A DNA stretch of 64,000 nt from Bdellovibrionales bacterium (GCA_965205945.1 CBDBIB010000001.1:1-64000); one strand, 5' to 3'; shown: positions 44,316-59,482, counted from the first letter of the stretch. Program-made: numbers and translations. Notes: generated from the sequence alone by a model not told the origin.

Positions 44316-44323
44316 ATGTTTTT

Positions 44324-45055
44324 CTAACTCTTAAGTAATATTCCACCATCAACATTAATAATAGCTCCTGTTGTCCAATCCGACTCACCTAAAAGATGTA
44401 TAACCATTTTTGCTATATCAACAGGTTCTCCAACACGGCCTAAAGGCTGCATATCTTTAAACATCTTTTTCCATTCAGATAAAGGTTTTTTATTTTTATG
44501 ATGAATAGGGGTGTTTATAATTCCAGGACAAATAGAGTTTACACGTATGCCTGAATCAGCAAACTCTAGGGCCATAGTAAGTGTTAAATTGTTCATAGCT
44601 GCTTTTGAAGCTGAATAAGCTGCTGTATTAGAAATAGGTTTTATTCCTAAAGTTGAAGAGATATTTATAATAGCGCCCTTATATTCTTTAAGCTCTTTAA
44701 AAAATTCTTGAGATAGATAAACTGCGCTTAAAACATTTGTTTTAAATTGGTCTAACCAGTTACTAGTTTTAGAGTCTAGAAATGATTTTGGAGTATAAAT
44801 ACCAGCATTATTTACAACACCTAAAAGTTTTCCTTTAGGAAGTTTTTTAAATTCATCTCTTAATTTTTTTTTAGATGTTTCTTCAGATAAATCTATTGAA
44901 ACATAAGGACAATCAAAAAGTTTTTTAGAGGCTTTTATTAGTAACTCTAAACGTCTTCCTAAGAGAATTGGAGTCCATTTTTTTTTAATACAAAGTTTTG
45001 CTATTTCAAAACCGATACCTGAGCCGCCACCACTAATATAAACGTAAGCATTCAT
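44324..45055 (-). CDS. Short-chain dehydrogenase/reductase
   Basis: SGGGSGIG, NNAG, YSASK, RVNSICPG, VDGG. Confidence 0.93.
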   Translation of the reverse strand: MNAYVYISGGGSGIGFEIAKLCIKKKWTPILLGRRLELLIKASKKLFDCPYVSIDLSEETSKKKLRDEFKKLPKGKLLGVVNNAGIYTPKSFLDSKTSNWLDQFKTNVLSAVYLSQEFFKELKEYKGAIINISSTLGIKPISNTAAYSASKAAMNNLTLTMALEFADSGIRVNSICPGIINTPIHHKNKKPLSEWKKMFKDMQPLGRVGEPVDIAKMVIHLLGESDWTTGAIINVDGGILLKS

Positions 45056-46464
45056 AAATTAAGGTTCCTCTTTTTTTTAAGGTTTTCTAAGCCAAATTGC
45101 CCTAACATATTTATATAGTAACCTGAGTAGTCTTTTGCATGCAAATGTGCAAAAAAAGGCATTCCTAAAGGCAGCCAAATGTATTGCTTTAATATGTTTT
45201 TAAAATATTTATCACATGAAAGGTTTGAATTTACTCTTACTCCTTTAAACTCAGGTTGTTTTTTAATGGACTCAATGGCTTCAACACAAGTTAGATTTTT
45301 TAAAATTATAGATTTTCTATAAACAGAAAGCTTATTTTTTAAAATACTTTCATAAAAAATGCCCGTTTCTAATTGCTTAATTTGAAGATTTATTCCTAAA
45401 TGTTTTTTCCAATTTTCTTTTGCCCATTGTGCAAGTATTTTATGCTCATTGGAGGAAATATTTGGAATATAAAGATTTATTTTTTTAGCTACATTTTTTA
45501 CCTTATTAAGATATTCTTTAGCTTTTTTTAAATCTAAATCATAACAAGCAAGCTTAGTTTTGAAAAAGAAAGATGGCAATGAGATACAGCCGGGTAGGGA
45601 AGGGCTTGAGAATATTTTTTTGAGTCCTTTATAATCAAGGCTATGAAAAAGAGCTTTTCTTAAAGATTTATCTTTTATGTGGTCAGGGTTAAAGAAAATT
45701 CCATCAAGTCTTGCAAAAGGCGCCATATAACGATTAGGGTACATGGGAATGTGTGAAGATTCTAAGTATCTAAGAAAGTCTATTCTTTTAGTATTGTATA
45801 TATTTAATGCTGTATTGGGATCATCAATAAATATTGCGTCAACCAAAGGTCTTTTCTTATCATCATAATAATTATTATTAGCAAGACTTATCTTTGAAGT
45901 TGTTAAATCTATAGCCCTATAAGGGCCAGAGAAAACTTGATGTAAAATTTTTTGATATAATTTTTCTTCTTTTCTAGGTGTAAAGTAAATATGAGTAAGT
46001 TCATGCATGAACTTAATATTTTTTCTTTTTAAGTAAAATATTAAGTTTCCATTGATTGTTTCTATTTTTTTAATATTACTTAAAAACTCTTCACTTTCTT
46101 CTTTTTCTTTTTTAATAAGATTATATGTATTAATATAATGCTTAGATGTGATAAGATCACCATTACTCCATTTTTTAGGATTGAGTTCACAATAAAGCTC
46201 AATGTTTGATTTCCATTTACATTTTTTAGCCCCATGAGCGGTTAACTTATTATCTTTATTATAATAGAATAAACCTCTGTGAAGATTGAATAATAAAAAT
46301 CTTTTAGCTAGTCCTCTAACTAAAAGCGGATCAAGGCTGTGTATTTGAACAGGAAGGTTAAATTTAAAACTCTTAGTTTGCTTGTTAGCATATTTTTTTG
46401 TACAACTACTAAAAAGCAACATGAGACTAAGTGCACTCTTCGTGATTAGAAACTTGAAACCCAA
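45052..46464 (-). CDS. ABC transporter substrate-binding lipoprotein, family 5 (OppA-like); start uncertain
   Basis: LLFSSC lipobox, SLDP, KWSNGDLIT, FSGPY, YDLDLKKAKEYL, WKKHLGI. Confidence 0.8.
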   Translation of the reverse strand: MGFKFLITKSALSLMLLFSSCTKKYANKQTKSFKFNLPVQIHSLDPLLVRGLAKRFLLFNLHRGLFYYNKDNKLTAHGAKKCKWKSNIELYCELNPKKWSNGDLITSKHYINTYNLIKKEKEESEEFLSNIKKIETINGNLIFYLKRKNIKFMHELTHIYFTPRKEEKLYQKILHQVFSGPYRAIDLTTSKISLANNNYYDDKKRPLVDAIFIDDPNTALNIYNTKRIDFLRYLESSHIPMYPNRYMAPFARLDGIFFNPDHIKDKSLRKALFHSLDYKGLKKIFSSPSLPGCISLPSFFFKTKLACYDLDLKKAKEYLNKVKNVAKKINLYIPNISSNEHKILAQWAKENWKKHLGINLQIKQLETGIFYESILKNKLSVYRKSIILKNLTCVEAIESIKKQPEFKGVRVNSNLSCDKYFKNILKQYIWLPLGMPFFAHLHAKDYSGYYINMLGQFGLENLKKKRNLNL

Positions 46465-46981
46465 TTGTTTTTCTTGCTTTTGCTGGCTGTAAGACTTCAG
46501 TTCCATCTATTTTTTTACCTATAAGTTCTAGTTGAAGTGTGTGTAGTTTACATAATCCACTTACAATTAGTTGGACTCGCAGTTGAACATGAAACTTACC
46601 TCGCTTACAAGAACCTAAATTAAATGAATTTGAAAAGCCATCCAATGAAGTTTTAGCAATAATAAAAGCTAAATCCAAGCCTCCTTCATTACAAAGACCG
46701 GACACATCAAAGCAAAAGTTATTTGAACCTGTTATTAAAGCTCCTGTAATATCTCTATTTGAATTTCCGTTACAATCACCATTTGCTGAAAGTGTAATTA
46801 TAGGGTTAGGAGTTTGAATAATGAGTTCTAAATTTATATTAGAGTCATCAACTAAACAGTATTGCCCGTCACTTTCTTCACAATTGTTAGTTTCGGTTTG
46901 AGAAAGATTAGTACCTTGCTCATCAATGACGCATGTTGTAAGTAATAGTAAAACTGGCAAGTAGAGTAGTGTTCTTCTCAT
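46427..46981 (-). CDS. Hypothetical Cys-rich lipoprotein
   Basis: MRRTLLYLPVLLLLTTC from ATG 46981; FDVSGLCNEGG motif. Confidence 0.75.
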   Translation of the reverse strand: MRRTLLYLPVLLLLTTCVIDEQGTNLSQTETNNCEESDGQYCLVDDSNINLELIIQTPNPIITLSANGDCNGNSNRDITGALITGSNNFCFDVSGLCNEGGLDLAFIIAKTSLDGFSNSFNLGSCKRGKFHVQLRVQLIVSGLCKLHTLQLELIGKKIDGTEVLQPAKARKTIGFQVSNHEECT

Positions 46982-46987
46982 ATCAAT

Positions 46988-47015
46988 ATATCGGTCAAAC
47001 ATCTTCCAGTCTTTA
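46988..47015 (-). promoter_or_regulatory. sigma28/FliA-type promoter
   Basis: TAAAG-15 nt-ACCGATAT, then 6 nt to ATG 46981. Confidence 0.65.
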
Positions 47016-47030
47016 ACCCTGGATTAAGAC

Positions 47031-48323
47031 TTAAAGACCATCTGGATCATAAAGAACATTTATTTCAGAACCTTGGGCGGGGATACTTGTACCGTGAAAT
47101 ACGATACTATTTTTAGATGGGATATAAGTCCAACCATTGTTTATATTTTGAGGTAAAATTGTAGGGACTATTTTTCCTGGACTTTTAACTGAAACTTGAA
47201 GCTTATTTGAGTCTTCAGGGATGCGTGTTAAAGAAAACTCAACTGTTTTTTCAATTATTGTCTTAGCTATATTACTTAAACTTTCTGAAAAATCCCCACA
47301 AATAGAGGCTTTAACTCCCCCTGATAAGTCAGAGAGTTTTATATATCTTGTTCCTATTCCGTCGTCGCCTGGACCACCATATAAATCATCACGACAGGTA
47401 TTATCGTCAAGCCTTGCTATTGTATGAAAGGAATAACCGTATATGGGACTTACAAGTTTTGTAAGAAAATCATGGTAATTTATTACAGGAACATTGTTTA
47501 TTACTGCTGGTAGTTCTTGCGATCCATTTTGAAGATTTCCTTCAATTTGATCTTCTTCATCAGAAACTACAATTATCGCTAAGTGAGCATCTGGTCTAGG
47601 AAAATTAAACTCTTTGTTTGCTGGAGTATTTAAAGCAGTTTGAATACTGTTTAAACCACTTTCATAAGGAACACCCGTTATTCCAACATTTGAATTGATT
47701 GCAAAAATATTTTTTACATTATTTGGAATATAGTCAGCATGACCAATTTCATAGACAGTATTATTTAAAGGATCATCGTACAATTTAAAGTCAATGGTGT
47801 CATCAGAACTGTCAATTAAATGGTATCCTGACAGTATATGTTCTTCTGAGACTTGGCGACAATCGATTGTAGAATTATTATTATTACTACTTAAAAGTTG
47901 CTTGCAGTTTTTTATTAAATCACCGTCAACAAATTTAGATGTCAAATACGAGGGGTCTTCGTTCCTATTTATAGCTATATAATCCATATAAGGAGTTATT
48001 TCTTCTAGATTATATAGTATAGACTCTGTTTGAGGATCCGTGTAATAAGCGTCTGTAGTGGTCACAGCTATTCTATAATCATAACCTTTTTTAATAAAGT
48101 CTGTTATAAAAGAATTAAAATTTTCTCTTAAGTGTTGTTGATTATCCTCCATTGATTCAGAGTTATCAATAACCCATAAAATATCCATTTTAGCGGTAAT
48201 AATCCTATTTTCTTGTTGTTGAAAGCTATCTAATGATGGAAGTGTTGAAATAGAAGGGGGGCGATTACATCCAAGAAGTAAGATTATTACTAGTAAAATA
48301 TTTATAAGGATTTTTTTAATCAT
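47031..48323 (-). CDS. vWA (MIDAS) domain lipoprotein, paralogue A
   Basis: LLLGC lipobox, DILWVIDNSESM, AVTTTD, IVVSDEED. Confidence 0.85.
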   Translation of the reverse strand: MIKKILINILLVIILLLGCNRPPSISTLPSLDSFQQQENRIITAKMDILWVIDNSESMEDNQQHLRENFNSFITDFIKKGYDYRIAVTTTDAYYTDPQTESILYNLEEITPYMDYIAINRNEDPSYLTSKFVDGDLIKNCKQLLSSNNNNSTIDCRQVSEEHILSGYHLIDSSDDTIDFKLYDDPLNNTVYEIGHADYIPNNVKNIFAINSNVGITGVPYESGLNSIQTALNTPANKEFNFPRPDAHLAIIVVSDEEDQIEGNLQNGSQELPAVINNVPVINYHDFLTKLVSPIYGYSFHTIARLDDNTCRDDLYGGPGDDGIGTRYIKLSDLSGGVKASICGDFSESLSNIAKTIIEKTVEFSLTRIPEDSNKLQVSVKSPGKIVPTILPQNINNGWTYIPSKNSIVFHGTSIPAQGSEINVLYDPDGL

Positions 48324-48329
48324 ACTAGA

Positions 48330-48356
48330 CCTTCGGTTTAAACATTTTAAGACTTA
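48330..48356 (-). promoter_or_regulatory. sigma28/FliA-type promoter of paralogue A
   Basis: TAAG-15 nt-ACCGAAGG-6 nt-ATG. Confidence 0.6.
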
Positions 48357-48369
48357 ATTAATTTAAAAA

Positions 48370-48860
48370 GGTCTGAATTGACCCATTATTAAGATACTGA
48401 GAGACTGTGTGGCGTTTTATGAGGCTCTCACTTGGTCTAGACTCTAGACCAAGTATGAAACACCAAGAAGTTGATAATTACCTAATAGCCGTACTGTCTA
48501 CATATAAGACAGCTTGTAGAGTTGAAAAAGGAAAGCTCTTAGGTCATGGAGAGCTGATCACTAAAAGATCCAGGAAGCACCTAATTAAAAGATTAAAGGA
48601 GCTAAAGACAAATAAGGGACTGCCAATCACGAAAAGATTAGGAGACCACTTATGTACTTAAGAACTGAGCTCATTTCCTACATCAAGTTTTTGTGGATGC
48701 AAATGGAGAAGATCTCAGTAAAGCCCATGAAGGCAGCAGTGCCTCATTGGCTCCCAAAATATAAAGGCTGTTCTGCACATTTAAAGTTGCAGCTCTCAAT
48801 GATGAGTGCCACAACACTAGGACGATACTTAAAAGACATTAGAGCAAGCGACACAGCGGG
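48370..48860 (+). mobile_element. Degenerate transposase remnant (N-terminal part of an integrase-type, ISNCY-like transposase); boundaries approximate
   Basis: TYKTACRVEKGKLL...KRSRKHLIKRL and LW.....S.K.MKAAVPHWLPKY...MSATTLGRYLK; frameshifted, truncated, GC-richer than flanks. Confidence 0.65.
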
Positions 48861-48936
48861 TATATTTTATTTTTTTAGCATTTTTTTTTTATAATATCTC
48901 AGGTATCTTCTATTGAACTTTTACTTTAATTAAAAT

Positions 48937-50058
48937 TTAAAGACCATCTGGATCATAAAGAACATTTATTTTAGAACCTTGAACAGGTATGCCCGTACCA
49001 TGAAAAACAATACTATTTGCAGGTGGATTATAAGTCCAACCATTGTTTATATCTTGAGGTAAAATTGTAGGGACTATTTTTCCTGGACTTTTAACTGAAA
49101 CTTGAAGCTTATTTGAGTTTTCAGGGATGCGTGTTAAAGAAAACTCAACTGTTTTTTCAATTATTGTCTTAGCTATATTACTTAAACTTTCTGAAAAATC
49201 CCCACAAATAGAGGCTTTAACTCCCCCTGATAAGTCAGAGAGTTTTATATATCTTGTTCCTATTCCGTCGCTTGGACCATGTGAATCATCACCACAGGTT
49301 TCGTCAATTTTTGCTATTGTATGAAATGAATAACCGTATATGGGACTTACAAGTTTTGTAAGAAAATCATGGTAATTTATTACAGGAACATTGTTTATTA
49401 CTGCTGGTAGTTCTTGCGATCCATTTTGAAGATTTCCTTCAATTTGATCTTCTTCATCAGAAACTACAATTATCGCTAAGTGAGCATCTGGTCTAGGAAA
49501 ATTAAACTCTTTGTTTGCTGGAGTATTTAAAGCAGTTTGAATACTGTTTAAACCACTTTCATAAGGAACACCCATTATTCCAACATTTGAATTGATTGCA
49601 AAAATATTTTTTACATTATTTGGAATATAGTCAGCATGACCAATTTCATAGACAGTATTATTTAAAGGATCATCGTACAATTGAAAGTCAATGGTGTCAT
49701 CAGAACTGTCAATTAAACGATACCCTGATCGTATATTTTTTCTTAAATCACCATCAACAAATTTAGATTTTATACCAGTATGGTAAGCATCTGTAGTAAT
49801 CACAGCTATTCTGTAATCATAATCTTTTTTAATAAAGTTTGTTATGAAAGAATTAAAATTTTCTCTTAAGTGTTGTTGCTCATCTTCCATTGATCTAGAG
49901 TTATCAATAACCCATAAAATATCCATTTTAGCTGCAGTCCTATTTTCTTGTTGTTGAAAGCTATCTAATGACGAAAGTACTGAAATAGAAGGAGGGCTAT
50001 TACATCCAAGAAGCAAGACTATCATTAGTAAAATATCTACAGGTATTTTTTTAATCAC
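48937..50058 (-). CDS. vWA (MIDAS) domain lipoprotein, paralogue B (short loops)
   Basis: LLLGC, DILWVIDNSRSM, IVVSDEED; GTG start. Confidence 0.85.
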   Translation of the reverse strand: MIKKIPVDILLMIVLLLGCNSPPSISVLSSLDSFQQQENRTAAKMDILWVIDNSRSMEDEQQHLRENFNSFITNFIKKDYDYRIAVITTDAYHTGIKSKFVDGDLRKNIRSGYRLIDSSDDTIDFQLYDDPLNNTVYEIGHADYIPNNVKNIFAINSNVGIMGVPYESGLNSIQTALNTPANKEFNFPRPDAHLAIIVVSDEEDQIEGNLQNGSQELPAVINNVPVINYHDFLTKLVSPIYGYSFHTIAKIDETCGDDSHGPSDGIGTRYIKLSDLSGGVKASICGDFSESLSNIAKTIIEKTVEFSLTRIPENSNKLQVSVKSPGKIVPTILPQDINNGWTYNPPANSIVFHGTGIPVQGSKINVLYDPDGL

Positions 50059-50064
50059 ACTAGA

Positions 50065-50091
50065 CTTTCGGTCTAATATTTTAAGACTTAA
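50065..50091 (-). promoter_or_regulatory. sigma28/FliA-type promoter of paralogue B
   Basis: TAAG-14 nt-ACCGAAAG-6 nt-GTG. Confidence 0.55.
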
Positions 50092-50416
50092 TTAATTTAA
50101 AAATAAGGTATTTCTTGTAAATACTTAAAATTACTTAAAATTATTTAATTTTTGTATTATAGTATCAAATTTAATTAAAATAAGATCTCAAATTTAAACA
50201 AAGCTTTTTATTAAATATAAGTATATTGTTAAAGATTTAAAATAAATATTATTAAAGTGTTGTCTTTTATGTAGATTCATAGGGGGATCTGTAAAAGGTC
50301 TAAAGAAAAAATTAATCAATAATACTTAGAGCTAGGGTTTTGTTTAGATTTAAATAGCATATTTTTTTCTATAGTTTTTAAATATTTTTGAGTGATCTTT
50401 TGTTTTGAATAAAAAT

Positions 50417-51691
50417 TTAAAGACCATTTGAGTCATAAAGGATATTTATTTCAGAGTCTTGGGCGGGAATACTTGTACCGTGAAATACAATACTATTTGC
50501 AGATGGATTATAAGTCCAACCATTATCTACGTTCTGAGGTAAAATTGTAGGGGTTATTTCTCCTGGATTTTTAACTGAAACTTGAAGCCTGTTTGGGTTC
50601 ACAGGAATATTTTTTAAAGGAAATTCAACTGTTTTTTCAATGATTATTTGAGCTATATTACTCAAACTTTCTGCAAAGTTGTCACAAATAGAGATTGCAA
50701 TTCCTCCTGATAAATCAGCAAGTGCTATATATCTATATCCTATTTGTGGATCCTTTTGTGACTGTTGATCTTCCATAGCTATATTAGGGCATTGAGCATT
50801 ATTAAATTTTACTATTGCATAAAATGAATAACCATATGTAGGATTTGCTTTTTGTTTAAGAATATTATTGTAATAATTCTCATCTTTAGGATTTTGTATA
50901 CGGTTATTTTCTTCGTTCTGGATTTGATCTTCTTCATCAGAAACTACAATTATCGCTAAGTGAGCATCTGGTCTAGGAAAATTAAACTCTTTGTTTGCTG
51001 GAGTATTTAAAGCAGTTTGAATACTACTTAAACCACTTTCAGCACCAAAACCTCTAGTTCCAACATTTGAATTGACTGCAAAAATATTTTTTACATTATT
51101 GCGAATATAGTCAGCATGACCAATTTCATAGACAGTATTATTTAAAGGATCATCGTACAATTTAAAGTCAATGGTGTTATCAGAACTGTCAATTAAATGA
51201 TACCCTGATCGTGTGTCTTCTGTGTCTTTTGTTAAATCACCATCAACAAATTTAGATGTTACATACCTGTCATATGGAACTTCATTATCTTCATTATTAC
51301 GATACTGGATGGTAAAATCAGTATAAGGACCTGTTTGTGCTGTTATTACTGGATGTTCAGCAGCCTTGGGATCTTTGGCATTATACACTTCACTATATTT
51401 TCCAGTCTCTGTGTAATAAGCATCTGTGGTGATCACAGCTATTCTATAGTCATAACCTTTTCCAATAAAGCTTGTTATAAAAGAATTAAAATTTTCTTTT
51501 AAGGCCTTTTGTTCATCATCCATTGATCTAGAGTTATCAATAACCCATAAAATATCCATTTTAGCTGTGATCTTATTACCTTGCTGTTGAAAAGTGTCTA
51601 ATAATGGAAGTACTGAAATAGAAGGAGGGCCACTACATCCAAGAAATAACGTTATCACAACTAAAATATTTAAAGAGATTTTTTTAATCAT
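50417..51691 (-). CDS. vWA (MIDAS) domain lipoprotein, paralogue C
   Basis: LFLGC, DILWVIDNSRSM, IVVSDEED. Confidence 0.85.
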   Translation of the reverse strand: MIKKISLNILVVITLFLGCSGPPSISVLPLLDTFQQQGNKITAKMDILWVIDNSRSMDDEQKALKENFNSFITSFIGKGYDYRIAVITTDAYYTETGKYSEVYNAKDPKAAEHPVITAQTGPYTDFTIQYRNNEDNEVPYDRYVTSKFVDGDLTKDTEDTRSGYHLIDSSDNTIDFKLYDDPLNNTVYEIGHADYIRNNVKNIFAVNSNVGTRGFGAESGLSSIQTALNTPANKEFNFPRPDAHLAIIVVSDEEDQIQNEENNRIQNPKDENYYNNILKQKANPTYGYSFYAIVKFNNAQCPNIAMEDQQSQKDPQIGYRYIALADLSGGIAISICDNFAESLSNIAQIIIEKTVEFPLKNIPVNPNRLQVSVKNPGEITPTILPQNVDNGWTYNPSANSIVFHGTSIPAQDSEINILYDSNGL

Positions 51692-51697
51692 AGGAGA

Positions 51698-51724
51698 CTA
51701 TCGGCTTGAGTATTTTGAGGTTTA
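51698..51724 (-). promoter_or_regulatory. sigma28/FliA promoter of paralogue C
   Basis: TAAA-15 nt-GCCGATAG (one mismatch to TAAA-N15-GCCGATAA), 6 nt to ATG. Confidence 0.8.
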
Positions 51725-52035
51725 GTTTTATCTAAAAGTTAGACAATTTAAAATACTTTTTATAAGTACTTTAAATTATTATTATTTTTTTAATAGCATT
51801 AAATTCAAACCCAATAAAGCTTAAAAATAAGACATAATTTTCAAAAAGATGTATTATATTTAGGCGAATATTTGTTAAAAATTAAGAAAAGTACTACTAA
51901 AGTGTTATCTGCTATATAAATTAATACGAAAATCCTAGAAGATTTGAGAAATAGGTTTAACTTATCGCATCACCCTCAGAGCTAAAGTCCTGTATAGTTT
52001 TGCTTGGATGGAGAGCAGGACCTTTAAAGAAGTCC

Positions 52036-52065
52036 TTGCGTTTATAAAGTATAGTTTTATACAAT
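52036..52065 (+). promoter_or_regulatory. Candidate sigma70 promoter for a small RNA
   Basis: TTGCGT-18 nt-TACAAT. Confidence 0.5.
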
Positions 52066-52071
52066 TTAATT

Positions 52072-52136
52072 TGTGGGGGGGCGATGTTGACCAAGAGGCC
52101 ACTTAGAAGCAGGATGCTTCACATCGCCTTTTTTTT
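52072..52136 (+). ncRNA. Candidate structured small RNA ending in an intrinsic terminator
   Basis: GC-rich island; GGCGATGT/ACATCGCC closing stem followed by T8; internal GAAGCA-GGA-TGCTTC hairpin; upstream promoter-like sequence. Confidence 0.5.
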
Positions 52137-52151
52137 ATGTGTAACAAAAAC

Positions 52152-52784
52152 CTAGATTTTACATTTAATAAGATCTTCTAGTTTATCAACATTAGCTATT
52201 TTTAAGAGTTCTTTTCTAACTTTAGCAATGTTTTTAGAATCTGTAAGGTCAACATTTTTTAAAGATTCTTGCATTTTAGTAATATTTTTAAAAGAGGTTT
52301 CTTTACCAGTTTTAACAGCTTCACTAATAAGCTTTAAAATTACTTCATTTGCTTGGATTAACTCGAAGGCCTCTTTAGATAAAACAGTCTTACTGCCAGC
52401 TTTAGCTTTTGTCATTGCACCATTAAATTTTTCTAAGGAATTTGATACTTCCTTAAGAGCAGATTCAATTTTAGGTTTTAAAAGAATAACTCTTACCTCG
52501 TCAACTCCCAGGGTTTTTCCCAAGTTTTCTAAGGATTTAGAAAATTCTGAGGCTTTATTATTACTTGAAAACGCCACATCTGCTTTTACAGCACTTTTAA
52601 AAATATTATTTGCTGATATTAAAGCAGTCTTAAAATCTCTTTTTGCATTTTCAGTAAGCTTTGTTGCTTCATTTTTAGTTTTATCTGCGTTTAAATTTTT
52701 ATTAGCACGATTACCTCTTCCAGCAAAAGATGTTGTTGCAAATCCAATTATAAACATAGCTATTAAAGTCCTGTTGTATTTCAT
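52152..52784 (-). CDS. Hypothetical secreted alpha-helical protein
   Basis: AGGAG RBS, signal peptide ending SFA, Lys/Ala-rich. Confidence 0.8.
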   Translation of the reverse strand: MKYNRTLIAMFIIGFATTSFAGRGNRANKNLNADKTKNEATKLTENAKRDFKTALISANNIFKSAVKADVAFSSNNKASEFSKSLENLGKTLGVDEVRVILLKPKIESALKEVSNSLEKFNGAMTKAKAGSKTVLSKEAFELIQANEVILKLISEAVKTGKETSFKNITKMQESLKNVDLTDSKNIAKVRKELLKIANVDKLEDLIKCKI

Positions 52785-52852
52785 TTTAAGTGGCTCCTAT
52801 TAGTTAGGTTAAGTATTAAAGGTAATGTTTTATTTATAAAATTCTGCCGAGT

Positions 52853-55800
52853 CTATAGGTTTGAAATATCAGCAAGTCCAGCTTGTGGCAAGAGTTCAAA
52901 AGCTTCAATGTATTTATTATAAAAATCATTTATATCATGTACACCAAGACGAAGAAGATCTATGAGTTCAGAAAGTACGTCTGTATTTTTTATACTCGAT
53001 TTTTTAATTATGGCTTCAATAGAATCAATTTCTTTAAGGGTAGCTAAAAGAGTTTTTTTAAACTGCACCTTTTTCTTATCATCTATAAGTACAGTATTTT
53101 GAATATATAAGCTATAATGATCTCGTATAGATCTTTGAATTGCATCTCTGTAGCGACGTATTTGAGCTCCATCACCGGAAGCATCCATTAAAATAAAGGC
53201 CCCGGGTTTTCCTGCTTCAAACTCAAATATCTTAAAAAGTCTACCTATTAAATCTTTATTAGCCTTATTAAAATCCTTGTCTGAATAATTAATAAAACTA
53301 TCATGAGAATTAGGAAAACTAAACTGTTTATGGTTTTTAATAATGGCTGTATTTAGCCTTGTTATTATATCCTCTACAAAAGCTTTTGATTCTTTAATTT
53401 CTCCAGGGTTATATGAGAGTTGCACTAAAAGCTCTGACAAGGTTTTTAAAGTGATCTTTATTTGTTCATCTAGTTCTTTTTCTAGTACTACTTCTTCATT
53501 TATTTTGTGGAAAGAGAAAAAGATATTTCTTATAAGATCTAAATAAAATCTAGATCTAGTTAATGTCTGAATATCGTAACTTTTAGACGTTAAATCGTTA
53601 CTATATCTTTTAAATTGAGTTCCTCTTGTTTGAAGATTAAAATGATTATTTTTTATTTTCTGAACTGGTTTAAATTTTAATTCAGAAGTTTTTAATAACA
53701 GCTCCTGAGCAGCTTTAGAAATAGCATACTCAAGCTCGTCAGCCTCTATGTAAGCATTTAAATGAACAGCATTGTGGTTTAAAATTTCTTTTTCAATCAT
53801 TTCTTTATATTCAACAATAAGGTTTAAATGAGATTGCATTGCTTTTTTTTGAACATTTTTAAGCCACCAAATATTTAAATCATGTTTAACAAAAGATTTT
53901 AAGGGTACTTTTGGGTTTAAAAGAAAGTGGAGACCTGAATACTCGTTTTCTATAAGAGGTGTATTATCTTTAGAATATATTGAATAAAGAGTATGTTTAG
54001 ATACGGCATGATTTTCACTTTTATTTTCTACACTTTCAGTAATTAGATCTCTGACTTCAAATGTAAAATGCATTGACTCTTTTATAGAAGGGTCTAAATT
54101 TTTAAAGCGATATCCTTTTTTAGTTATGGTATTTTCTTTCGTAGTTTTTTGATTTATAAATTTATGTAACTTTTTTAATTTAGAAGTGTATTTAATAACT
54201 TGACCTAATGAAACAGAATGAGCACTTACCACTGCTCTATCATTTAAGAACTGAGCACTTTCTTTAATATCATTAATCATCTCTAACAAAGTGGTATAAT
54301 CTTTATGAGTTGTTGGAATTTTACTTTTAAAATCAGCTCTTAATTGTTCAATCTTTTCCATATCTACAAAATAATCTGATTTATATTTATTTTGAAATAA
54401 AGGAAAAATATTCTTAGGGTTTTTACAATTAAAATCTACTTTAGTTCTATCAATTATCCCTGCTGGTATAAATTCTATAGAATAGGTCTTTTCATCTTTA
54501 ATACTAAAATTTTGATCCCCACAAATAGACTTTAAAACTACCCAATCAAATACTGTATTGCTGTTAAGTTTTTCTTTAAAAAATTTTTCTCCTTGATTAT
54601 CTGAATAAGATATTTGATTTAATGCCTCATAAAAAGATGCAGCTTCACTTTTATTAGCATAAAACTTACTTAAAATATCCTTACTCGTTATATTGGCTTC
54701 AATAAAACTATCAATTTCATACCAATATCTATTCAGATTCTGTGTAATTCCTCTAGGATCAGAGATAGAGTTGTATTTAAGAAAAGATTTTCGAAAATCT
54801 TTTCTTAAATTAAAATACCCTTTAATATCAAATGATTTTTGGTTATCATTAAAAAGAAGGTTAAATCTATTAATCCAAACTTTAATTTTTTTAACTTTTT
54901 CTTCTTGTATGTGATAAGTTCTTGAAGATAAAAATTTTTGGTTTTTAATCAAAGCTTCTTTATTAGCAATTGATTTATTTAAAATTTTTTTCAAAGTTTT
55001 AAGCTTATTATAGTCAATCTCTAGTGGTTTTGTATAACCTTTTGATCTTGCACGATTAACATAACTATAAAGCTTACTTGTTCCTTCATAAGCTGCATAA
55101 AGATGAGCGGCTTTTCTATGAAACATAGGGGTGTTTTCTTCATTTAAAGGCCTTAAATGACTTTTTGCTTGAGACTCTTTTAATTGAGAATCTAGATTTC
55201 TTAATGTGCTTATAAAATCAGATTTTAAAGATTCATCTTGAAGAGAATTCCAAAAGCTTTTTTCATGATTTTTTATAGTTGTTAAAAGAGTTTTTATTTT
55301 TTTTCTTGCATAAATTTTATTATGGACAATATCATACCAAGGAGTCATGATCTTATTTCTAAAAAATTCTTCAAAAGCTACAAAATATACAGCATGAGAA
55401 AATGTTTGTTTTACAGATTTTCCAAAAGAAAAAACAGCTTTAAGAGCTCCCCCTGGAACGAATGTAAAACCTAATAGAAAAGCTTTTGAACCTACTAGAC
55501 GAATTGTTTTTCCTAAAACTGGTCCAAAAATTTTAGACATTGTTGTTTGAGCTAAAAAAGCTGCAAATGCTGCTGACAACATATTACCTGTGGCTCCTAA
55601 AAACTCAAGCCACTTTTCATCACTAAGCATATAGTTTTTAAAAGATTTACATTCTGTCGATTCTAAACCTAAACCTAATTTAAATCTATTTAAACAAGGC
55701 TTAGACTGCACAATAAAATCTATTAAAAGGTCTTGAGTCATTGAACCTACAGCCATTCCAAGATATCCATACATCATTTTAGCAGATAACCCTGTATTTT

Positions 55801-56449
55801 GAATATATTTGCGAACTCGAATCTTTCTTTCATCTAAATTTAATCCATTTTTTAATCCTAATCGCTCTATTTGCTTAATATGAAAGTTATTTAATCGCCC
55901 ACTAGTTTGTGCACTTGCAACCATAAAAGCATAAAACCCGGCGATACCTAAGGGGTCAGTTAATAAACCTATAAGGGTATCTTCTCCACAAGAAGGGGAG
56001 GATGGATTATGTGGTTTGTATATAGGTATATTAAATGGATTAAATCCACCGCACTGTATTGCTGTAACTAAGTGAATTGCTAAGGCAAAGGCAACGTGTG
56101 TTGAAGGAAATGTTCTAGCTTGTGAAACAAGTGTCGTCCCTATATTTACATTTTGGCGGTAAGCACTTTGAACTTGCTTCATTGTTGCTTTATTCCAAGG
56201 TATCATTTTAAATTCGCCTGTTAATTTTTTATTTCTTATTACAGGGACTGGGATTAGATCTTTAGGATCATTGAAATGTTTTAGAACTGTATTAAATTCA
56301 GAGTCCGGCATTTCTTTTGCTAGGCTTTCATCTTCACTACTAAGTGTACGATTTTGAATATGGGTTTGTGAAAAATTATTAATAACAAAGTACAGTAGAA
56401 AAATACAAAAACATAAACTACTTACAGCTTTAAATTTAGAACTATTCAT
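52853..56449 (-). CDS. Large hypothetical membrane-associated protein (1198 aa)
   Basis: Long ORF, signal peptide, Gly/Ala-rich hydrophobic segments in the N-terminal third. Confidence 0.8.
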   Translation of the reverse strand: MNSSKFKAVSSLCFCIFLLYFVINNFSQTHIQNRTLSSEDESLAKEMPDSEFNTVLKHFNDPKDLIPVPVIRNKKLTGEFKMIPWNKATMKQVQSAYRQNVNIGTTLVSQARTFPSTHVAFALAIHLVTAIQCGGFNPFNIPIYKPHNPSSPSCGEDTLIGLLTDPLGIAGFYAFMVASAQTSGRLNNFHIKQIERLGLKNGLNLDERKIRVRKYIQNTGLSAKMMYGYLGMAVGSMTQDLLIDFIVQSKPCLNRFKLGLGLESTECKSFKNYMLSDEKWLEFLGATGNMLSAAFAAFLAQTTMSKIFGPVLGKTIRLVGSKAFLLGFTFVPGGALKAVFSFGKSVKQTFSHAVYFVAFEEFFRNKIMTPWYDIVHNKIYARKKIKTLLTTIKNHEKSFWNSLQDESLKSDFISTLRNLDSQLKESQAKSHLRPLNEENTPMFHRKAAHLYAAYEGTSKLYSYVNRARSKGYTKPLEIDYNKLKTLKKILNKSIANKEALIKNQKFLSSRTYHIQEEKVKKIKVWINRFNLLFNDNQKSFDIKGYFNLRKDFRKSFLKYNSISDPRGITQNLNRYWYEIDSFIEANITSKDILSKFYANKSEAASFYEALNQISYSDNQGEKFFKEKLNSNTVFDWVVLKSICGDQNFSIKDEKTYSIEFIPAGIIDRTKVDFNCKNPKNIFPLFQNKYKSDYFVDMEKIEQLRADFKSKIPTTHKDYTTLLEMINDIKESAQFLNDRAVVSAHSVSLGQVIKYTSKLKKLHKFINQKTTKENTITKKGYRFKNLDPSIKESMHFTFEVRDLITESVENKSENHAVSKHTLYSIYSKDNTPLIENEYSGLHFLLNPKVPLKSFVKHDLNIWWLKNVQKKAMQSHLNLIVEYKEMIEKEILNHNAVHLNAYIEADELEYAISKAAQELLLKTSELKFKPVQKIKNNHFNLQTRGTQFKRYSNDLTSKSYDIQTLTRSRFYLDLIRNIFFSFHKINEEVVLEKELDEQIKITLKTLSELLVQLSYNPGEIKESKAFVEDIITRLNTAIIKNHKQFSFPNSHDSFINYSDKDFNKANKDLIGRLFKIFEFEAGKPGAFILMDASGDGAQIRRYRDAIQRSIRDHYSLYIQNTVLIDDKKKVQFKKTLLATLKEIDSIEAIIKKSSIKNTDVLSELIDLLRLGVHDINDFYNKYIEAFELLPQAGLADISNL

Positions 56450-56558
56450 AGTTTAATTATTTCGGATTTAATATAGATTAAAGCAAATAAATCTCATTTT
56501 GATAATCTAGGCAAAAATCTAGGTGATATCTTTAGTTAAAAATCTTAAAATACTGTTT

Positions 56559-56822
56559 ATGGAGGTTTTTAATTACTTTTGGTTTTTTTTATATGGTCTT
56601 ATTGCAGGAGTTTTAGCAAAAACCCTTGCCCCTGAAAGAGATCAAGGAGGGTTTATTTTTACATCTATCCTAGGGATTCTAGGCTCTATTCTAGGGGGTT
56701 TTATTTTTTCTTTTTTTGGGTGGACTTTTGAAAAAGGCTTTTCTTTTAGTGGTCTTATCCCTGCCTTTATAGGCTCAATTGTAATTCTTATTTTTTATAA
56801 AATAATTACTAAATTATTATAA
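56559..56822 (+). CDS. GlsB/YeaQ/YmgE (transglycosylase-associated) small membrane protein
   Basis: GLIAGVLAK.L.P.RDQGG...TSILGILGSILGG...AFIGSIVIL. Confidence 0.88.
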   Translation: MEVFNYFWFFLYGLIAGVLAKTLAPERDQGGFIFTSILGILGSILGGFIFSFFGWTFEKGFSFSGLIPAFIGSIVILIFYKIITKLL

Positions 56823-56981
56823 TTTTAAAAAATATTATTTTTAAATTTTTAACAATATGATCTAAATATAATATAATATAATATAATTAATAAAAATCTA
56901 TGTCTAAATTTGAAATGTTATTTTAGTTAAATTTAATAATTTTTAAGTATTTAAAGAAAGTGCTTTAATTTTTATATTAAT

Positions 56982-57008
56982 TAAGCTTTAAAAGACTCAA
57001 ACCGATAA
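56982..57008 (+). promoter_or_regulatory. sigma28/FliA-type promoter of paralogue D
   Basis: TAAG-15 nt-ACCGATAA-6 nt-ATG. Confidence 0.72.
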
Positions 57009-57014
57009 TTCAGT

Positions 57015-58283
57015 ATGATTAAGAAAGTACGAATAAATATTTTAGTAGTGATAGTCTTACTTCTTGGCTGTAGTGAGCCTCCTTCTTTTTCAGTGTTTCC
57101 GTCAATAGATATTTTTTATCAAACACAAGAAAATAAAGCTACAGCTAAAATAGATATTTTATGGGTTATTGATAACTCTGGATCAATGGAGGATGATCAA
57201 CAACACTTAAGAGAAAATTTTAATTCTTTTATAACAGACTTTATTAAAAAGGGTTATGATTACAGAATAGCTGTGATCACCACAGATGCTTATTATACGG
57301 ATCCTCAAACAGAGTCTATATATAGTCAAGAAAGAATGGGCCCTTATATGGATTTTATAAATATAGATGGGAACGGAGAGTTCCTCCGGTATTTGACATC
57401 TAAATTTGTTGATGGTGATTTAACAAAAAGCTGCAAGCAATTTTTTAGTAATAATGATTTTACAGCCGATTGCCGCCAAGTCACAGAAGAACATATACTG
57501 TCAGGATACCATTTAATCGACAGTTCTGATGACATCATTGACTTTAAATTGTATGATGATCCTTTAAATACTGTTTATGAAATTGGTCATGCTGACTACA
57601 TTCCCAATAATATAAAAAATATTTTTGCCATCAATTCAAACGTTGGAATAGTGGGTTCTCCTTATGAAAGTGGTTTAAAAAGCATTCATACGGCTTTAAA
57701 TACCTCAGCAAACAAAAAGTTTAACTTTCCTAGATCAGATGCTCATTTAGCGATAATTATAGTTTCTGATGAAGAAGATCAAATTGAAGGAAGTCTTCAG
57801 CCTAATGGATCGCCAGCAGAAGTAATAAACAATGTTCCTGTAAAAGATTATCACGATTTTTTTACAAAACTTGTAAGTCCCATATACGGCTATTCGTTTC
57901 ATACAATAGCAAAAATTGACGAAACCTGTGGTAAAGCATTTGGTCCAAATGACGGAATAGGAACAAGGTATATAGAGCTTTCTAACTTATCAGGAGGAGT
58001 TAAGAGCTCTATTTGTGGGGATTTTTCAGAAAGTTTGAGTAATATAGCTAAAACAATCATTGAAAAAACAGTTGGGTTTTTTTTAACAAATGTCCCTGCA
58101 GAGTCAAATAGGCTTCAAGTTTCAATTAAAAGCCCAGGAAAAATAATCCCTACAATTTTACCTCAAGATATAAACAATGGTTGGACTTATAATCCATCTG
58201 CAAATAGTATTGTTTTTCATGGTACGGGCATACCTGTTCAAGGCTCTAAAATAACTGTCCTTTATGAACCAGCCTTTTTTTAG
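57015..58283 (+). CDS. vWA (MIDAS) domain lipoprotein, paralogue D (inverted relative to A-C)
   Basis: LLLGC, DILWVIDNSGSM, IIVSDEED. Confidence 0.85.
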   Translation: MIKKVRINILVVIVLLLGCSEPPSFSVFPSIDIFYQTQENKATAKIDILWVIDNSGSMEDDQQHLRENFNSFITDFIKKGYDYRIAVITTDAYYTDPQTESIYSQERMGPYMDFINIDGNGEFLRYLTSKFVDGDLTKSCKQFFSNNDFTADCRQVTEEHILSGYHLIDSSDDIIDFKLYDDPLNTVYEIGHADYIPNNIKNIFAINSNVGIVGSPYESGLKSIHTALNTSANKKFNFPRSDAHLAIIIVSDEEDQIEGSLQPNGSPAEVINNVPVKDYHDFFTKLVSPIYGYSFHTIAKIDETCGKAFGPNDGIGTRYIELSNLSGGVKSSICGDFSESLSNIAKTIIEKTVGFFLTNVPAESNRLQVSIKSPGKIIPTILPQDINNGWTYNPSANSIVFHGTGIPVQGSKITVLYEPAFF

Positions 58284-59482
58284 AACTTAAAAGCCATAAA
58301 ATGAATCTATTGCAGTGGGCTTTTCGTGTTTTATGTCATCCACAATAGTATATCGATTTCGGAACTGATTTCCTGCGGTTTGCATTTGGGTAAAGGTATT
58401 TAGTTGATTACTCATTAAAATTAAATATGGAAAAAATAAGTTTGTACTACTTTTTCATAAACTTTTACTGAGAAAAAGATATATTGTTGAGATTGTATTA
58501 ACTGGGTATTGTTTGCGTCCTTTTAAACCGGTAGTATGTATAAATTTTAAAGTGTAGTGTTTTTAAATAAAATGCTGATAAGGTATATTATGTTACAACT
58601 TAGAAATTATTTAATTTAAATCCTAAAACTCATATCTTTTATTCTAAGGTTAATATCCTTATCACCAAGCTTTATTAAACTAATCAAGCTTCTCCTAGAC
58701 CCTCGTTTTATCTTTTTTCAATAATATTAATTTTGTTTTTTAAATATGAGTTTAGAAATTTTTAATCTGCCCAAAGCTTCTCAAGATCTGGTTCAAATAA
58801 AATTCACCCTCCACCAGGACCATTTTCTCCTAGGTGATAAGGTGGAAGAATAATAGACCCTATTGTCGAACTTGCATTAGCATGCTTAGGAGCAGGCCTT
58901 AAATAGGGTATACCTATAGGAAAAACTCTTCTTTTAGAGGCTCTCCAAGCTTATTGTCATTACCAAGGGAAACTGTCACCTCTAAAAATAGTAATAACTC
59001 TAAACTAGGTTTTATTTCTCCTTTCCAAGAAGCTTATTTACTTGGAACTCGTTGTAATTAACCCGAATTTGAACTTTTTAAATCTGCTGTAACATTCTAT
59101 TTTTGTGGGTTTTTGAATATGGATTGATGGTTTAAAAGGGCACAGACAATATACTGTTAATACTGACAAAACAGTCTTAACAATATATCTTATTCCTCAG
59201 TAACAGTTTATCAAATAGGTGATCTTCTTCGGGTTATCTTACAACAGATTTGTAGAAATTAGGAAATCTTTAAACACCTTATTTTTTTGTTTTTCTACAT
59301 CTGCTTATACAATCAAATCTTTGCATTGAAATATTCGTTATAGAGACTCTTAGCCTCATTGTTATTTATAATAATAAAATTAATTGCCATAAAACCTTTA
59401 GTGAGCTTGTTAAAAAAGGGTACTGTCTTACATAAAGCAGATCTCTTAAAGTAAGCTCTTCTATTCATCAAAAAAAAATAAA

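Follow-up and report, generated by a model that had tools for sequence, protein, structure and literature searches.

Four vWA lipoprotein genes (A to D) in a 64,000-nucleotide stretch of DNA (the window) from a Bdellovibrionales bacterium, a Bdellovibrio-like predator, are probably an expansion of MIDAS lipoprotein adhesins of the Bd0875/Bd1483 type that has been shaped by gene conversion without dedicated diversification machinery. Although the case is clear, it is one of fairly ordinary gene conversion in a known adhesin family and reveals no new mechanism. An earlier sequence-only reading had described a recombination-diversified system of mosaic paralogues; its positions for A, B, C and the inverted D are exact and all four are intact lipoprotein paralogues (Table 1).

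Table 1. Features of the locus, in window coordinates.
Feature	Coordinates	Strand	Size or remark	Basis
Gene A	47031..48323	-	430 aa; MIDAS/vWA lipoprotein	intact ORF, lipobox
Gene B	48937..50058	-	373 aa; GTG start	intact ORF, lipobox
Gene C	50417..51691	-	424 aa	intact ORF, lipobox
Gene D	57015..58283	+	422 aa; inverted, 5.3 kb from C	intact ORF, lipobox
Cap region	A 47832..48053, B 49729-49791, C 51209-51424, D 57285-57500	A -	between strands beta2 and beta3; residues 91-164 in A; vestigial in B	AF2, alignment
Single-Cys hypervariable loop	A 47352..47414, B 49258-49311, C 50738-50809, D 57912-57962	A -	after strand beta5	22/25 columns variable
Central homogenised block (s3)	A 47562..47858, B 49459-49734, C 50939-51223, D 57474-57767	A -		trees, dS
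A=B tract	A 47431..47676 / B 49328..49573	-	246 nt identical; covers beta4-alpha4 loop	exact match
A=B=C tract	A 47545..47648 / B 49442..49545 / C 50922..51025	-	104 nt identical	exact match
D upstream region	56825..57014	+	homologous to upstream of B (50059-50256) and C (51692-51888)	alignment
Foreign element between B and A	48370..48936		~560 bp	alignment, second copy in own genome
Putative lipoprotein gene	46427..47002	-	191 aa; directly downstream of A

Each protein starts with a hydrophobic signal that ends in L-L/F-L-G-C (LLGC or FLGC in 4/4). Gene A carries both cap modules, a 39-aa insert after TTD and a 31-aa loop bracketed by cysteines. Gene B, 92.9% (~93%) identical to A at the nucleotide level outside indels, is the cap-less form; its length is typical of the family and its cap modules, of 9 and 8 aa, compare with medians of 19 and 7 in the family. 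Gene C, the most divergent of the four, has a 57-aa first module of its own and lacks the Cys-bracketed second module, and D combines an A-like cap with a B-like Cys loop and tail. The sharing of loops that had been claimed can be followed in the alignment, where the long insert that follows TTD occurs in both A and D, as does the Cys-bracketed loop; B has its type of Cys loop and its C-terminal tail in common with D; and A and C carry the other type of tail. The variable residue of DNSxS is E in A, R in B and C, and G in D, again as had been read.

The best sigma-70-like match upstream of D found by pattern scan is TTAACA-17-TATAAT at 56849-56877, while such matches overall are not enriched over shuffled sequence (72 vs 63.1 +/- 8.9). 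The element inserted between B and A, which has no Pfam or Rfam match, has a second copy that is 91–92% identical at G000:C3:313066-313435, and it leaves A only ~50 nt of upstream homology. Since this insertion truncates the native upstream region of A, expression of A may be altered or poor. The 191-aa putative lipoprotein has no family match in Pfam/NCBIfam scans and was found in 8 of the 41 genomes searched, the one under study included; its gene adjoins a vWA match in G001, G002, G003 and G008, and in G007 lies ~1.3 kb from one on the opposite strand. Inverted repeats lie just 3′ of D.

The AF2 models of A (pLDDT 84.8, pTM 0.85) and B (pLDDT 85.0, pTM 0.81) have a vWA core (residues 45-361) flanked by a strand (31-35) and a group of strands (362-424) that form a small beta domain. 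Model A matches the vWA fold of 1aox_B (Z 13.2, rmsd 3.0, 187/201 residues aligned), and the best 50 matches of model B in a Foldseek-independent fold search of 48,161 chains are all vWA domains (top 7eow_A, Z 13.4). Across 55 aligned homologues D53, S55, S57, E221, D255 and D258 do not vary. The vWA/MIDAS assignment of the earlier reading is thus upheld by the fold and the invariant D53, S55, S57, E221 and D255. Pfam VWA (PF00092) reaches 17.3–18.2 bits, below its cut-off of 23.8, and only its first ~45–59 profile positions are matched; the sequences are too divergent for the Pfam model, and it is the fold that bears the vWA assignment.

A–D match the NCBIfam model NF052240 (“MIDAS family adhesin”) at 60.8–67.1 bits (E 1.6e-18 to 1.2e-16; A at 64.1 bits), and a lipobox followed by a vWA domain inserted into a small beta domain made up by the N-terminus and the C-terminus together is the architecture of Bd0875/Bd1483. 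The scores fall far short of the equivalog cut-off of 700 bits, which is reached by 0 of the 8 related ORFs in the genome. By these sequence scores A–D are to be classed as homologues, not orthologues, of Bd0875, and its function cannot simply be transferred to them. Outer-surface display of A–D and metal-dependent binding of prey or other surfaces are predicted, prey or surface recognition being suggested by homology to Bd0875.

A different role for the same genes with the same evolution, as gliding-motility or envelope vWA lipoproteins (like CglB/CglD) or as periplasm-facing lipoproteins, is possible but doubtful. The NCBIfam CglD model also matches A–D (E 1.8e-8 to 2.4e-5), covering residues 40-354 in B, and the available text of the Bdellovibrio study gives no predation phenotype for three (Bd0767, Bd1483 and Bd3132) of the four MIDAS proteins that it tested (PMC11003981). 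However, the Bd0875-family model outscores CglD (61–67 vs 22–33 bits), and hypervariable loops at a binding site would be expected more of proteins whose external partner is variable.

Variation among the four proteins is concentrated in the loops of the top face. With loop limits drawn from AF2 secondary structure after the alignment had been viewed, 127 of 165 top-face loop columns are variable against 52 of 176 elsewhere in the vWA domain (Fisher p=8.5e-19), and 47 of 68 against the same 52 of 176 if the big insert is left out (p=3.7e-8). The sites named in the earlier reading do lie on the MIDAS face: in the predicted structures invariant MIDAS residues sit in 3 of the 5 variable loops themselves, and the big insert is located between strands 2 and 3. 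The offset of the Bd0875 cap from the DxSxS aspartate, as given in the available account, falls inside this insert. The variable segments differ by indels as well as substitutions. Positive selection on the loops is not supported, their dN/dS of 0.46–1.02 being not clearly above 1.

The mosaic pattern among A–D goes beyond chance. The identity of ~245 nt between A and B that had been reported extends over 246 nt, and the ~100 nt of that block said to be shared by C are 104 nt identical in all three genes; an exact-match search of the window gives further identical A=B runs of 151 nt (47214-47364 / 49120-49270), 108 nt and 65 nt. Beyond the fully identical tracts, it is blocks with 85–98% identity that make up most of the mosaic. 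Permutation tests were run on 1086 ungapped columns of the A–D alignment, 296 of them polymorphic. The 52 parsimony-informative sites (24 AB/CD, 19 AC/BD, 9 AD/BC) are clustered, with 28 adjacent pairs of the same type against a null of 18.6 +/- 3.3 (p=0.003), and a PHI-like test puts incompatibility within 100 nt at 0.42, where the null value is 0.64 (p=5e-5). In a run test, the longest stretch of concordant polymorphic sites exceeds permutation in 6/6 gene pairs, with uncorrected p from 2e-4 (A-B) to 0.016 (C-D). For the four genes of G003, the only congener compared, the same PHI-like test is not significant (p=0.23) and the run test gives p<0.05 in only 4/6 gene pairs. The description as a patchwork rather than a simple tree stands for A–D, where the segment trees also conflict.

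The comparison between the genome under study (G000) and G003, a genome of the same genus, bears on the age of the copies. Nucleotide identity is 92.9% for A-B, 88.1% for B-D and 86.5% for A-D within G000, and 74.4–77.7% between positional orthologues. In G003 the syntenic order is a 1198-aa gene, a 212-aa gene, C3, a short B3, A3, a 193-aa gene and an SBP gene; D3 sits outside that array and its location differs from that of D. Gene order, cap-less middle gene, C-type loops and D-type tails match position for position between the two genomes. Since this C-B-A array with its short middle gene is syntenic in G003, the copies are old, and the similarity within each genome is therefore concerted evolution.

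No single congruent tree runs along the genes, as trees built per segment make plain, and s3 conflicts with the segments that flank it. The tree of s3 groups all four genes by genome with 100/100 support, and no orthologue pair survives the AU test, with p from 1.2e-4 (C+C3) down to 5e-49. These p-values are optimistic because segment boundaries were picked after the identity profile had been seen. C and its orthologue C3 are recovered together in s1 (89/93), s2 (99), s4 (92/97) and s6 (81/86), with bootstraps of 99 in the cap and 95 in the 3′ loops, though by-genome monophyly outside s3 is not rejected by AU (p=0.056–0.16). On the 5′ side of s3 A pairs with D, on its 3′ side A pairs with B, and the tail pairs B with D. 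Synonymous divergence follows the same lines: dS in s3 is 0.05–0.33 within G000 vs 0.47–0.61 between positional orthologues, A-B dS is 0.03–0.05 in s4 and s5, and in the cap A-D dS is 0.15 vs 0.68–0.80 for positional orthologues. Incongruent segment trees with AU rejection, low synonymous divergence in the shared blocks and clustering by genome despite the syntenic array of the congener support the segmental gene conversion that the sequence-only reading had inferred. Most of the conversion that can be detected homogenizes rather than diversifies, and turnover is slow since the loops of C have stayed orthologous to those of C3 since the split from G003.

On the explanation we favor, the locus would represent a lineage-specific expansion to four genes within the Bdellovibrionota MIDAS lipoprotein adhesins of the Bd0875/Bd1483 type. 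Each protein consists of a lipobox, a small beta domain contributed by both termini and, inserted in it, a vWA domain whose MIDAS is complete (DxSxS + E + D). All four genes would have been present before this species split from G003. Since then, ectopic gene conversion by ordinary homologous recombination, in tracts of ~50 to 650 nt, would have partially overwritten them again and again, which would have homogenized the central scaffold block in A–D, made A nearly the same as B over most of the 3′ two-thirds, and left a cap common to A and D and a tail common to B and D. The indel-rich loops that ring the MIDAS (the cap between strands 2-3, the Cys loop, and the loops that precede the conserved ESGL and follow SDEEDQ) would have been skipped by conversion or transferred as whole modules, so that each gene would carry a different combination of loop types on a common scaffold. 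Any adaptive value of these combinations is putative.

A more speculative extension, to which we give a low probability, is that of a self-reassorting adhesin repertoire in which the homogenized central block acts as a handle that recombines 5′ cap and 3′ loop modules among expressed MIDAS adhesins, yielding new prey-surface specificities for the predator without dedicated machinery. The central block is kept in all four genes including the inverted D, and on this reading A/B would be a natural pair of capped and cap-less forms on a near-identical scaffold.

The recombination-diversified system of the earlier reading, taken in the dedicated sense, is not supported: in addition to the loop dN/dS and slow turnover given above, all four copies are complete genes, and neither silent cassettes nor a reverse transcriptase were found. 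A frequently switching cassette-type system, with the copies as donors and acceptors at a high rate and the central block possibly as recombination handle, is very unlikely, even though every gene is a distinct combination of loop modules, inverted repeats lie just 3′ of D, and a conserved central block with variable flanks is the layout proposed, in the available text, to drive shuffling of S. aureus lpl (PMC2568036). None of the four is truncated or promoter-less, 4/4 being full length with start codon and lipobox; B, C and D have a common upstream region; the C loops are still orthologous since speciation; and a search of the genome itself shows no partial close copies that could be silent donors. 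Reverse transcriptase (PF00078, RVT_1) has 0 matches in the 97%-complete genome, in a search whose control was positive in 3/14 genomes. No recombinase gene was seen among ORFs of at least 80 aa at 44-61 kb, nor by Pfam/NCBIfam scans of the 11 non-paralogue ORFs there, and with a single assembly per species no switching was seen. Two specific mechanisms were rejected: for a diversity-generating retroelement no reverse transcriptase was matched in the 97%-complete genome, and the variable segments differ by indels as well as substitutions; a cassette-type antigenic variation locus fails since all four copies are complete ORFs with start codon and signal peptide.

That the identical blocks and some junctions are mis-joined or cross-polished paralogues of a metagenome-derived assembly is improbable. 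Among public runs the locus occurs only in X1 and X2, which come from one sample, and in X3, as contigs of low word depth (~2–8 in unique parts). These contigs break exactly in the paralogue region at shared blocks and contain graph-like joints that link paralogues, the short sides measuring 25–41 nt. However, the independently assembled G003 has the same four-gene layout, and similarity within the genome exceeds that between orthologues; most mosaic blocks are 85–98% identical rather than only identical, the ORFs are all intact, and a mis-join of tandem direct repeats would delete a copy, not make a patchwork. The assembly also separates nine more fibre-gene segment copies elsewhere (0.5–1.4 kb, 91–95% identity) and one internal repeat. 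That each genome duplicated the genes recently and independently, and that uneven divergence with purifying selection on conserved blocks then gave the pattern, with no conversion, is the least credible reading and extremely improbable: tandem arrays of the family in other genomes of the order, such as three adjacent matches in G032, indicate that duplication is frequent, yet the two genomes agree by position in order, cap-less middle gene, C-type loops and D-type tails, the orthology of one gene pair, recovered in some segments, is rejected in another, and the similarity reaches synonymous sites.

Several known systems offer comparisons. In Neisseria pilE/pilS and Borrelia vlsE, one expression site is combined with silent partial cassettes and switching occurs at high frequency. 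As there, segmental non-reciprocal transfer between related sequences gives mosaic surface proteins (surface location being predicted for A–D); unlike there, each of A–D is a complete gene, and exchanged blocks have diverged enough to imply that events are rare. A–D also resemble the integrin beta headpiece, with its beta-I domain in the hybrid domain: a vWA domain is inserted in a beta-sandwich, the MIDAS is DxSxS + Glu + Asp, and a long disulphide-containing insert lies between strands 2 and 3, which we take to be the position of the integrin specificity-determining loop. Integrin beta chains align over residues 22-430 (Z 12–13, 245–267 residues) at an rmsd of 6–8 A, which is high because of domain orientation. 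Unlike integrins, A–D have no sequence-level match, a Pfam scan giving no Integrin_beta hit, and they lack an alpha-subunit partner; convergence or very ancient descent may explain the resemblance. In S. aureus, tandem lipoprotein-like lpl paralogues are described with a highly conserved center and variable 5′ and 3′ regions, and homologous recombination at the central region was invoked to explain the incongruent phylogenies of their two halves (Tsuru and Kobayashi 2008, PMC2568036). [quoted passage not shown] A–D likewise have a conserved central region (s3) with incongruent phylogenies on its two sides, in another protein family and another organism. As far as the available text goes, copy number and order of lpl are rearranged among >10 genomes of one species, whereas neither has changed between the two genomes of one genus compared here, where the events resemble non-reciprocal conversion.

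The closest comparison is with Bdellovibrio bacteriovorus HD100, where Bd0875 and Bd1483 are MIDAS-family lipoprotein adhesins (PMC11003981; NF052240). According to the available text, the authors regard Bd0875 as a MIDAS adhesin important for prey invasion, place its “cap” (aa 143-176) “above the MIDAS domain” and think that it confers specificity; cap chimeras and deletions were ruled out since a structural model predicted disrupted folding (PMC11003981). Judged by the same partial account, A–D share with Bd0875 the conserved DxSxS and an acidic loop residue (E213 in Bd0875, E221 in A–D), with Bd0875 and Bd1483 a conserved aromatic residue in the small domain, and with the pair the feature that some members have a cap over the MIDAS (Bd0875; A, C, D) and others do not (Bd1483; B). 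A–D are nevertheless only distant homologues of Bd0875 (61–67 bits vs the 700 cut-off), and their caps are two separate inserts flanking a conserved strand, any homology of which to the Bd0875 cap is putative. The available text, in which “paralog” occurs 0 times, gives no account of four paralogues that convert one another.

The locus thus holds natural versions of the Bd0875 cap constructs that could not be tested. B is cap-less, folds confidently in the model and has 93% DNA identity to the capped A; A and D have similar caps with different 3′ loops, and C has a different cap. If these proteins are prey adhesins, binding assays on A–D would directly test cap and loop modules as determinants of specificity. 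As regards genome evolution, it provides a clean case, drawn from two genomes, of concerted evolution in which the scaffold has been homogenized and the binding loops have been left distinct.

The four vWA lipoprotein genes A, B, C and D lie within the opening 64 kb of contig 1 in a genome (G000) of 1.87 Mb, assembled into five contigs and 97% complete. A whole-genome search found no further close copies, with four other ORFs elsewhere being distant relatives. The four align end to end, with protein identities to A of 89% (B), 67% (C) and 80% (D), and every N-terminus carries a signal, basic and hydrophobic, with LLGC or FLGC at its end.

Features of the vWA lipoprotein array, its neighbors and the encoded loops and cap modules
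Feature	Position	Strand	Description
Gene A	47031-48323	minus	430 aa ORF
Gene B	48937-50058	minus	373 aa ORF, GTG start
Gene C	50417-51691	minus	424 aa ORF
Gene D	57015-58283	plus	422 aa ORF
~560-bp element	48370-48936		between B and A; replaces most of A's ancestral upstream region
Putative lipoprotein gene	46427-47002	minus	191 aa
Genes kept beside the array	52152-56449	minus	1198-aa protein; 210-aa exported protein
DUF285 surface protein gene	59483-63943	minus	1486 aa
Variable top loop 1	strand 1 to helix 1		carries DxSxS
Variable top loop 2	strand 2 to strand 3		insert
Variable top loop 3	before conserved ESGL		
Variable top loop 4	after SDEEDQ		
Variable top loop 5	after strand 5		Cys loop
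Cap modules, A			module 1 39 aa; module 2 31 aa
Cap modules, D			module 1 39 aa; module 2 29 aa
Cap modules, C			module 1 57 aa; module 2 11 aa
Cap modules, B			module 1 9 aa; module 2 8 aa
Cap modules, 48 selected more distant homologues			module 1 median 19 (7-75) aa; module 2 median 7 (3-19) aa

The similarity among the genes is a patchwork. An exact-match search of the window showed that A and B share an identical block of 246 nt (47431-47676 and 49328-49573) and further identical runs of 151, 108 and 65 nt, and that an identical block of 104 nt is common to A, B and C (47545-47648, 49442-49545 and 50922-51025). The sequence-only reading had placed the first block at the same coordinates with about 245 nt and the second at about 100 nt. 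The loop sharing it described was reproduced in the alignment, as was the x of DNSxS (E, R, R and G in A to D): the cap, an insert between vWA strands 2 and 3, is common to A and D, the Cys loop and tail to B and D, and another tail type to A and C. The 52 parsimony-informative sites of the codon alignment back all three groupings (24 AB/CD, 19 AC/BD, 9 AD/BC) and are clustered in runs, with AD/BC sites near the cap end, AB/CD sites in the 3′ third and AC/BD sites in the tail. Shuffling of site order gave p=0.003 for adjacency of like sites and p=5e-5 for local incompatibility (PHI-like test). The longest concordant run of polymorphic sites exceeded expectation in six of six pairs, with uncorrected p values of 2e-4 to 0.016.

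A same-genus genome (G003) provides the comparison needed to date the array. It has the same neighborhood with unchanged gene order: a 1198-aa gene, a ~210-aa gene, C3 (long), B3 (short, 364 aa), A3 (long), a ~190-aa gene and a solute-binding-protein gene; the fourth copy, D3, is on another contig. At the corresponding positions both genomes have a middle gene that lacks the cap, a cap and loops of C type and a D-type C-terminus, thus all four genes are older than the species split. Nucleotide identity nevertheless is 92.9% (A-B), 88.1% (B-D) and 86.5% (A-D) inside G000 vs. just 74.4-77.7% between positional orthologues. Within the G003 quartet alone the PHI-like test gave p=0.23 and the run test p<0.05 in four of the six pairs. 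D itself is flanked by a Transgly_assoc gene and a conserved repeat; since G003 holds a 2077-aa gene at that position and D3 lies elsewhere, one D copy was relocated after the split. The 1198-aa and 210-aa proteins, kept beside the array in both genomes, had no Pfam or NCBIfam match.

Chimeric assembly or polishing of the paralogues could in principle produce such a mosaic. The only public runs containing the locus are low-depth metagenomes (X1 and X2, from one sample, and X3), with no RNA run among those listed, and their contigs over 46500-58800 break at the shared blocks, with short-sided joints between paralogues that we read as graph branches through repeats and not as chimeric alleles. 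Fragmentation at shared blocks would fit an artefact, but G003 carries an independent array, many blocks are at 85-98% identity, the ORFs of all four genes are intact and the same assembly separates fibre-gene copies that are 91-95% identical; we therefore consider this explanation very improbable. One X3 contig joins 51208 to 48045, with C-like and A-like flanks bridged by 36 other letters. Their translation, read by eye, looks like the cap-less form of B3, which suggests a G003-like relative in that second sample rather than a chimeric allele.

Trees of six segments, whose boundaries were picked after inspecting the identity profile, conflict with one another. Over alignment positions 641-945, the central block (A 47562-47858 and equivalents), the copies cluster by genome, each set of four as a clade supported at 100/100, and forcing any orthologue pair is rejected, with AU p values from 1.2e-4 down to 5e-49 for these post hoc segments. 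Outside the central block, AU tests did not reject by-genome monophyly (p=0.056-0.16). A C+C3 pairing is recovered with support of 89/93 for the N-terminal segment, 99 for the cap, 92/97 for the 3′ loops and 81/86 for the tail. Synonymous sites follow the same pattern: dS in the central block is 0.05-0.33 inside G000 vs. 0.47-0.61 for positional orthologues, A-B dS is 0.03-0.05 in the two segments right after it, and A-D dS in the cap is 0.15 vs. 0.68-0.80 for orthologues. Due to this low dS in the shared blocks, purifying selection at the protein level cannot account for them. Simple duplication fails as the sole account since the array predates the split from G003, the segment trees conflict and synonymous sites agree. 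The segmental gene conversion proposed from the sequence is thus upheld by the conflicting trees and the low dS, and the best-supported explanation of the mosaic is ectopic gene conversion of the ordinary kind between the four complete paralogues. Conversion would homogenize the scaffold, with the strongest effect in the central block; loops rich in indels would sometimes be bypassed, as in the A/B cap difference, and sometimes moved as a unit, examples being the A/D cap and the B/D Cys loop and tail.

Nothing found suggests dedicated diversification machinery. A search of G000 against itself found no partial cassettes, a genome search found no reverse transcriptase, and no recombinase gene appears among the ORFs of 80 aa or longer in the 44-61 kb part of the window. 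The candidate recombination-diversified system of the sequence-only reading is therefore not borne out in any dedicated sense. The closest evolutionary analogue found is the tandem lipoprotein (lpl) cluster of S. aureus, with a conserved central region and variable flanks; recombination at that central region is proposed to shuffle the variable 5′ and 3′ halves (PMC2568036).

Upstream regions and neighbors have their own histories. About 170 nt of upstream sequence, including a TTAACA-17-TATAAT box, is common to B, C and D, and the upstream homology of A ends ~50 nt before its start codon, at the ~560-bp element. A promoter-pattern scan served only to locate this conserved box; in AT-rich DNA it returned 72 matches vs. 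63.1 ± 8.9 in shuffles, which is no enrichment. A second copy of the element (G000 contig 3, 313066-313435) is 91-92% identical with an internal length difference. The element contains a near-perfect palindrome (48430-48454) and short ORFs of 84 and 80 aa, fused to 93 aa in the second copy; neither element nor ORFs had a Pfam or Rfam match. Rfam gave no match at E≤0.1 on 44000-60000, and a tRNA search of 56000-60000 was negative. In G003 a ~240-bp repeat occupies the intergenic region between B3 and A3 (L030 7750-7990), so a different repeat landed upstream of the A-position gene in each species. Blastn of this repeat against G000 contigs 1-3 gave 25 matches, of which 12 span 120 nt or more at 75-93% identity, and the repeat matches the window weakly at 58497-58539 and 59059-59171. 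Inverted-repeat arms (58472-58529 and 59129-59195) enclose a stretch of ~600 bp lying between the 3′ end of D and that of the giant DUF285 gene, and 58384-58610 is 96-99% identical at the translated level to L041 2266-2492 of G003, in genomes otherwise ~75% alike. The DUF285 protein has a long repeat array (PF03382, 1131 bits, 13 stretches) and a weak PKD match, and the 3′ 0.5-1.4 kb of its gene is repeated at nine other G000 sites at 91-95% identity. The 191-aa putative lipoprotein belongs to no known family and occurs in 8 of 41 related genomes, G000 included; its gene directly adjoins a vWA lipoprotein gene in several (G001, G002, G003 and G008), and the protein may be a functional partner. 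As annotated, its ORF starts before the solute-binding-protein ORF has ended, with ~80 nt in common.

The vWA assignment relies mainly on predicted structure. Pfam VWA matches sub-threshold, by the first strand and DxSxS alone (17-18 bits vs. a cut-off of 23.8), and a PDB sequence search had no match at E≤1. AlphaFold models from alignments of 55-56 homologues reached pLDDT 84.8 and pTM 0.85 for A and pLDDT 85.0 and pTM 0.81 for B. In the model of A, an N-terminal strand (31-35) precedes a vWA core (45-361), and a C-terminal beta sandwich (362-424) follows it. Structural search with A returned integrin alpha I domains (Z 13.2, rmsd 3.0, 187 aligned), and integrin beta chains span both domains (residues 22-430, 245-267 aligned, Z 12-13, rmsd 6-8); the best 50 matches of B in a Foldseek-independent search were all vWA domains (top Z 13.4). 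D53, S55, S57, E221, D255 and D258 are invariant across 55 homologues. The family is widespread in Bdellovibrionota, with a match in 40 of the 41 genomes searched (G000 included) and 369 of 4005 candidate proteins reaching E≤1e-3, named, where at all, hypothetical or vWA-domain; a typical member has ~350 aa, and B. bacteriovorus has a 348-aa homologue (P0128). All four proteins match NF052240 (Bdellovibrio MIDAS family adhesin, 378 positions) at E 1e-16 to 1e-18, with 61-67 bits vs. an equivalog cut-off of 700; the model of the Myxococcus gliding lipoprotein CglD matched more weakly. A-D share the architecture of the B. bacteriovorus MIDAS lipoprotein adhesins Bd0875 and Bd1483 as described in PMC11003981, but are distant homologues, not orthologues. 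That paper reports that in Bd0875 an additional cap (aa 143-176) sits over the MIDAS, the metal-binding site, packed against the variable residues of DxSxS, that loss of Bd0875 or a D66A variant leaves ~10% of killed prey uninvaded, and that deletion of the cap-less Bd1483 had no phenotype. For A-D, we infer expression, surface exposure and a ligand.

Variation is concentrated where the sequence-only reading had seen it. With top loops defined from model secondary structure as those at the C-terminal ends of the parallel vWA strands, 127 of 165 top-loop columns are variable vs. 52 of 176 in the remaining vWA domain (Fisher p=8.5e-19), and 47 of 68 vs. 52 of 176 when the large insert is left out (p=3.7e-8). 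Three of the five variable loops hold invariant MIDAS residues, so their predicted position on the binding face, likewise proposed earlier, follows from the fold; the mapping uses fold topology and the published Bd0875 description. The large insert comprises two modules, one on each side of the conserved SKFVDGDL strand. Judged by module lengths in the 48 homologues, B is the family-typical form, and the Cys-bracketed module 2 of 25-31 aa is restricted, within the sampled homologues, to the G000/G003 clade. Loop dN/dS is 0.46-1.02, so not clearly in excess of 1, and scaffold dN/dS 0.17-0.65; the loops may be under relaxed constraint or diversifying selection.

MIDAS lipoprotein adhesins in predatory bacteria and concerted evolution among paralogous surface lipoproteins are already known. 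In the literature on Bdellovibrio gene conversion and predatory MIDAS adhesin paralogs we found nothing in print on conversion among MIDAS adhesins. The main value of A-D is as natural cap and loop chimeras for testing the specificity determinants of Bd0875-type adhesins.
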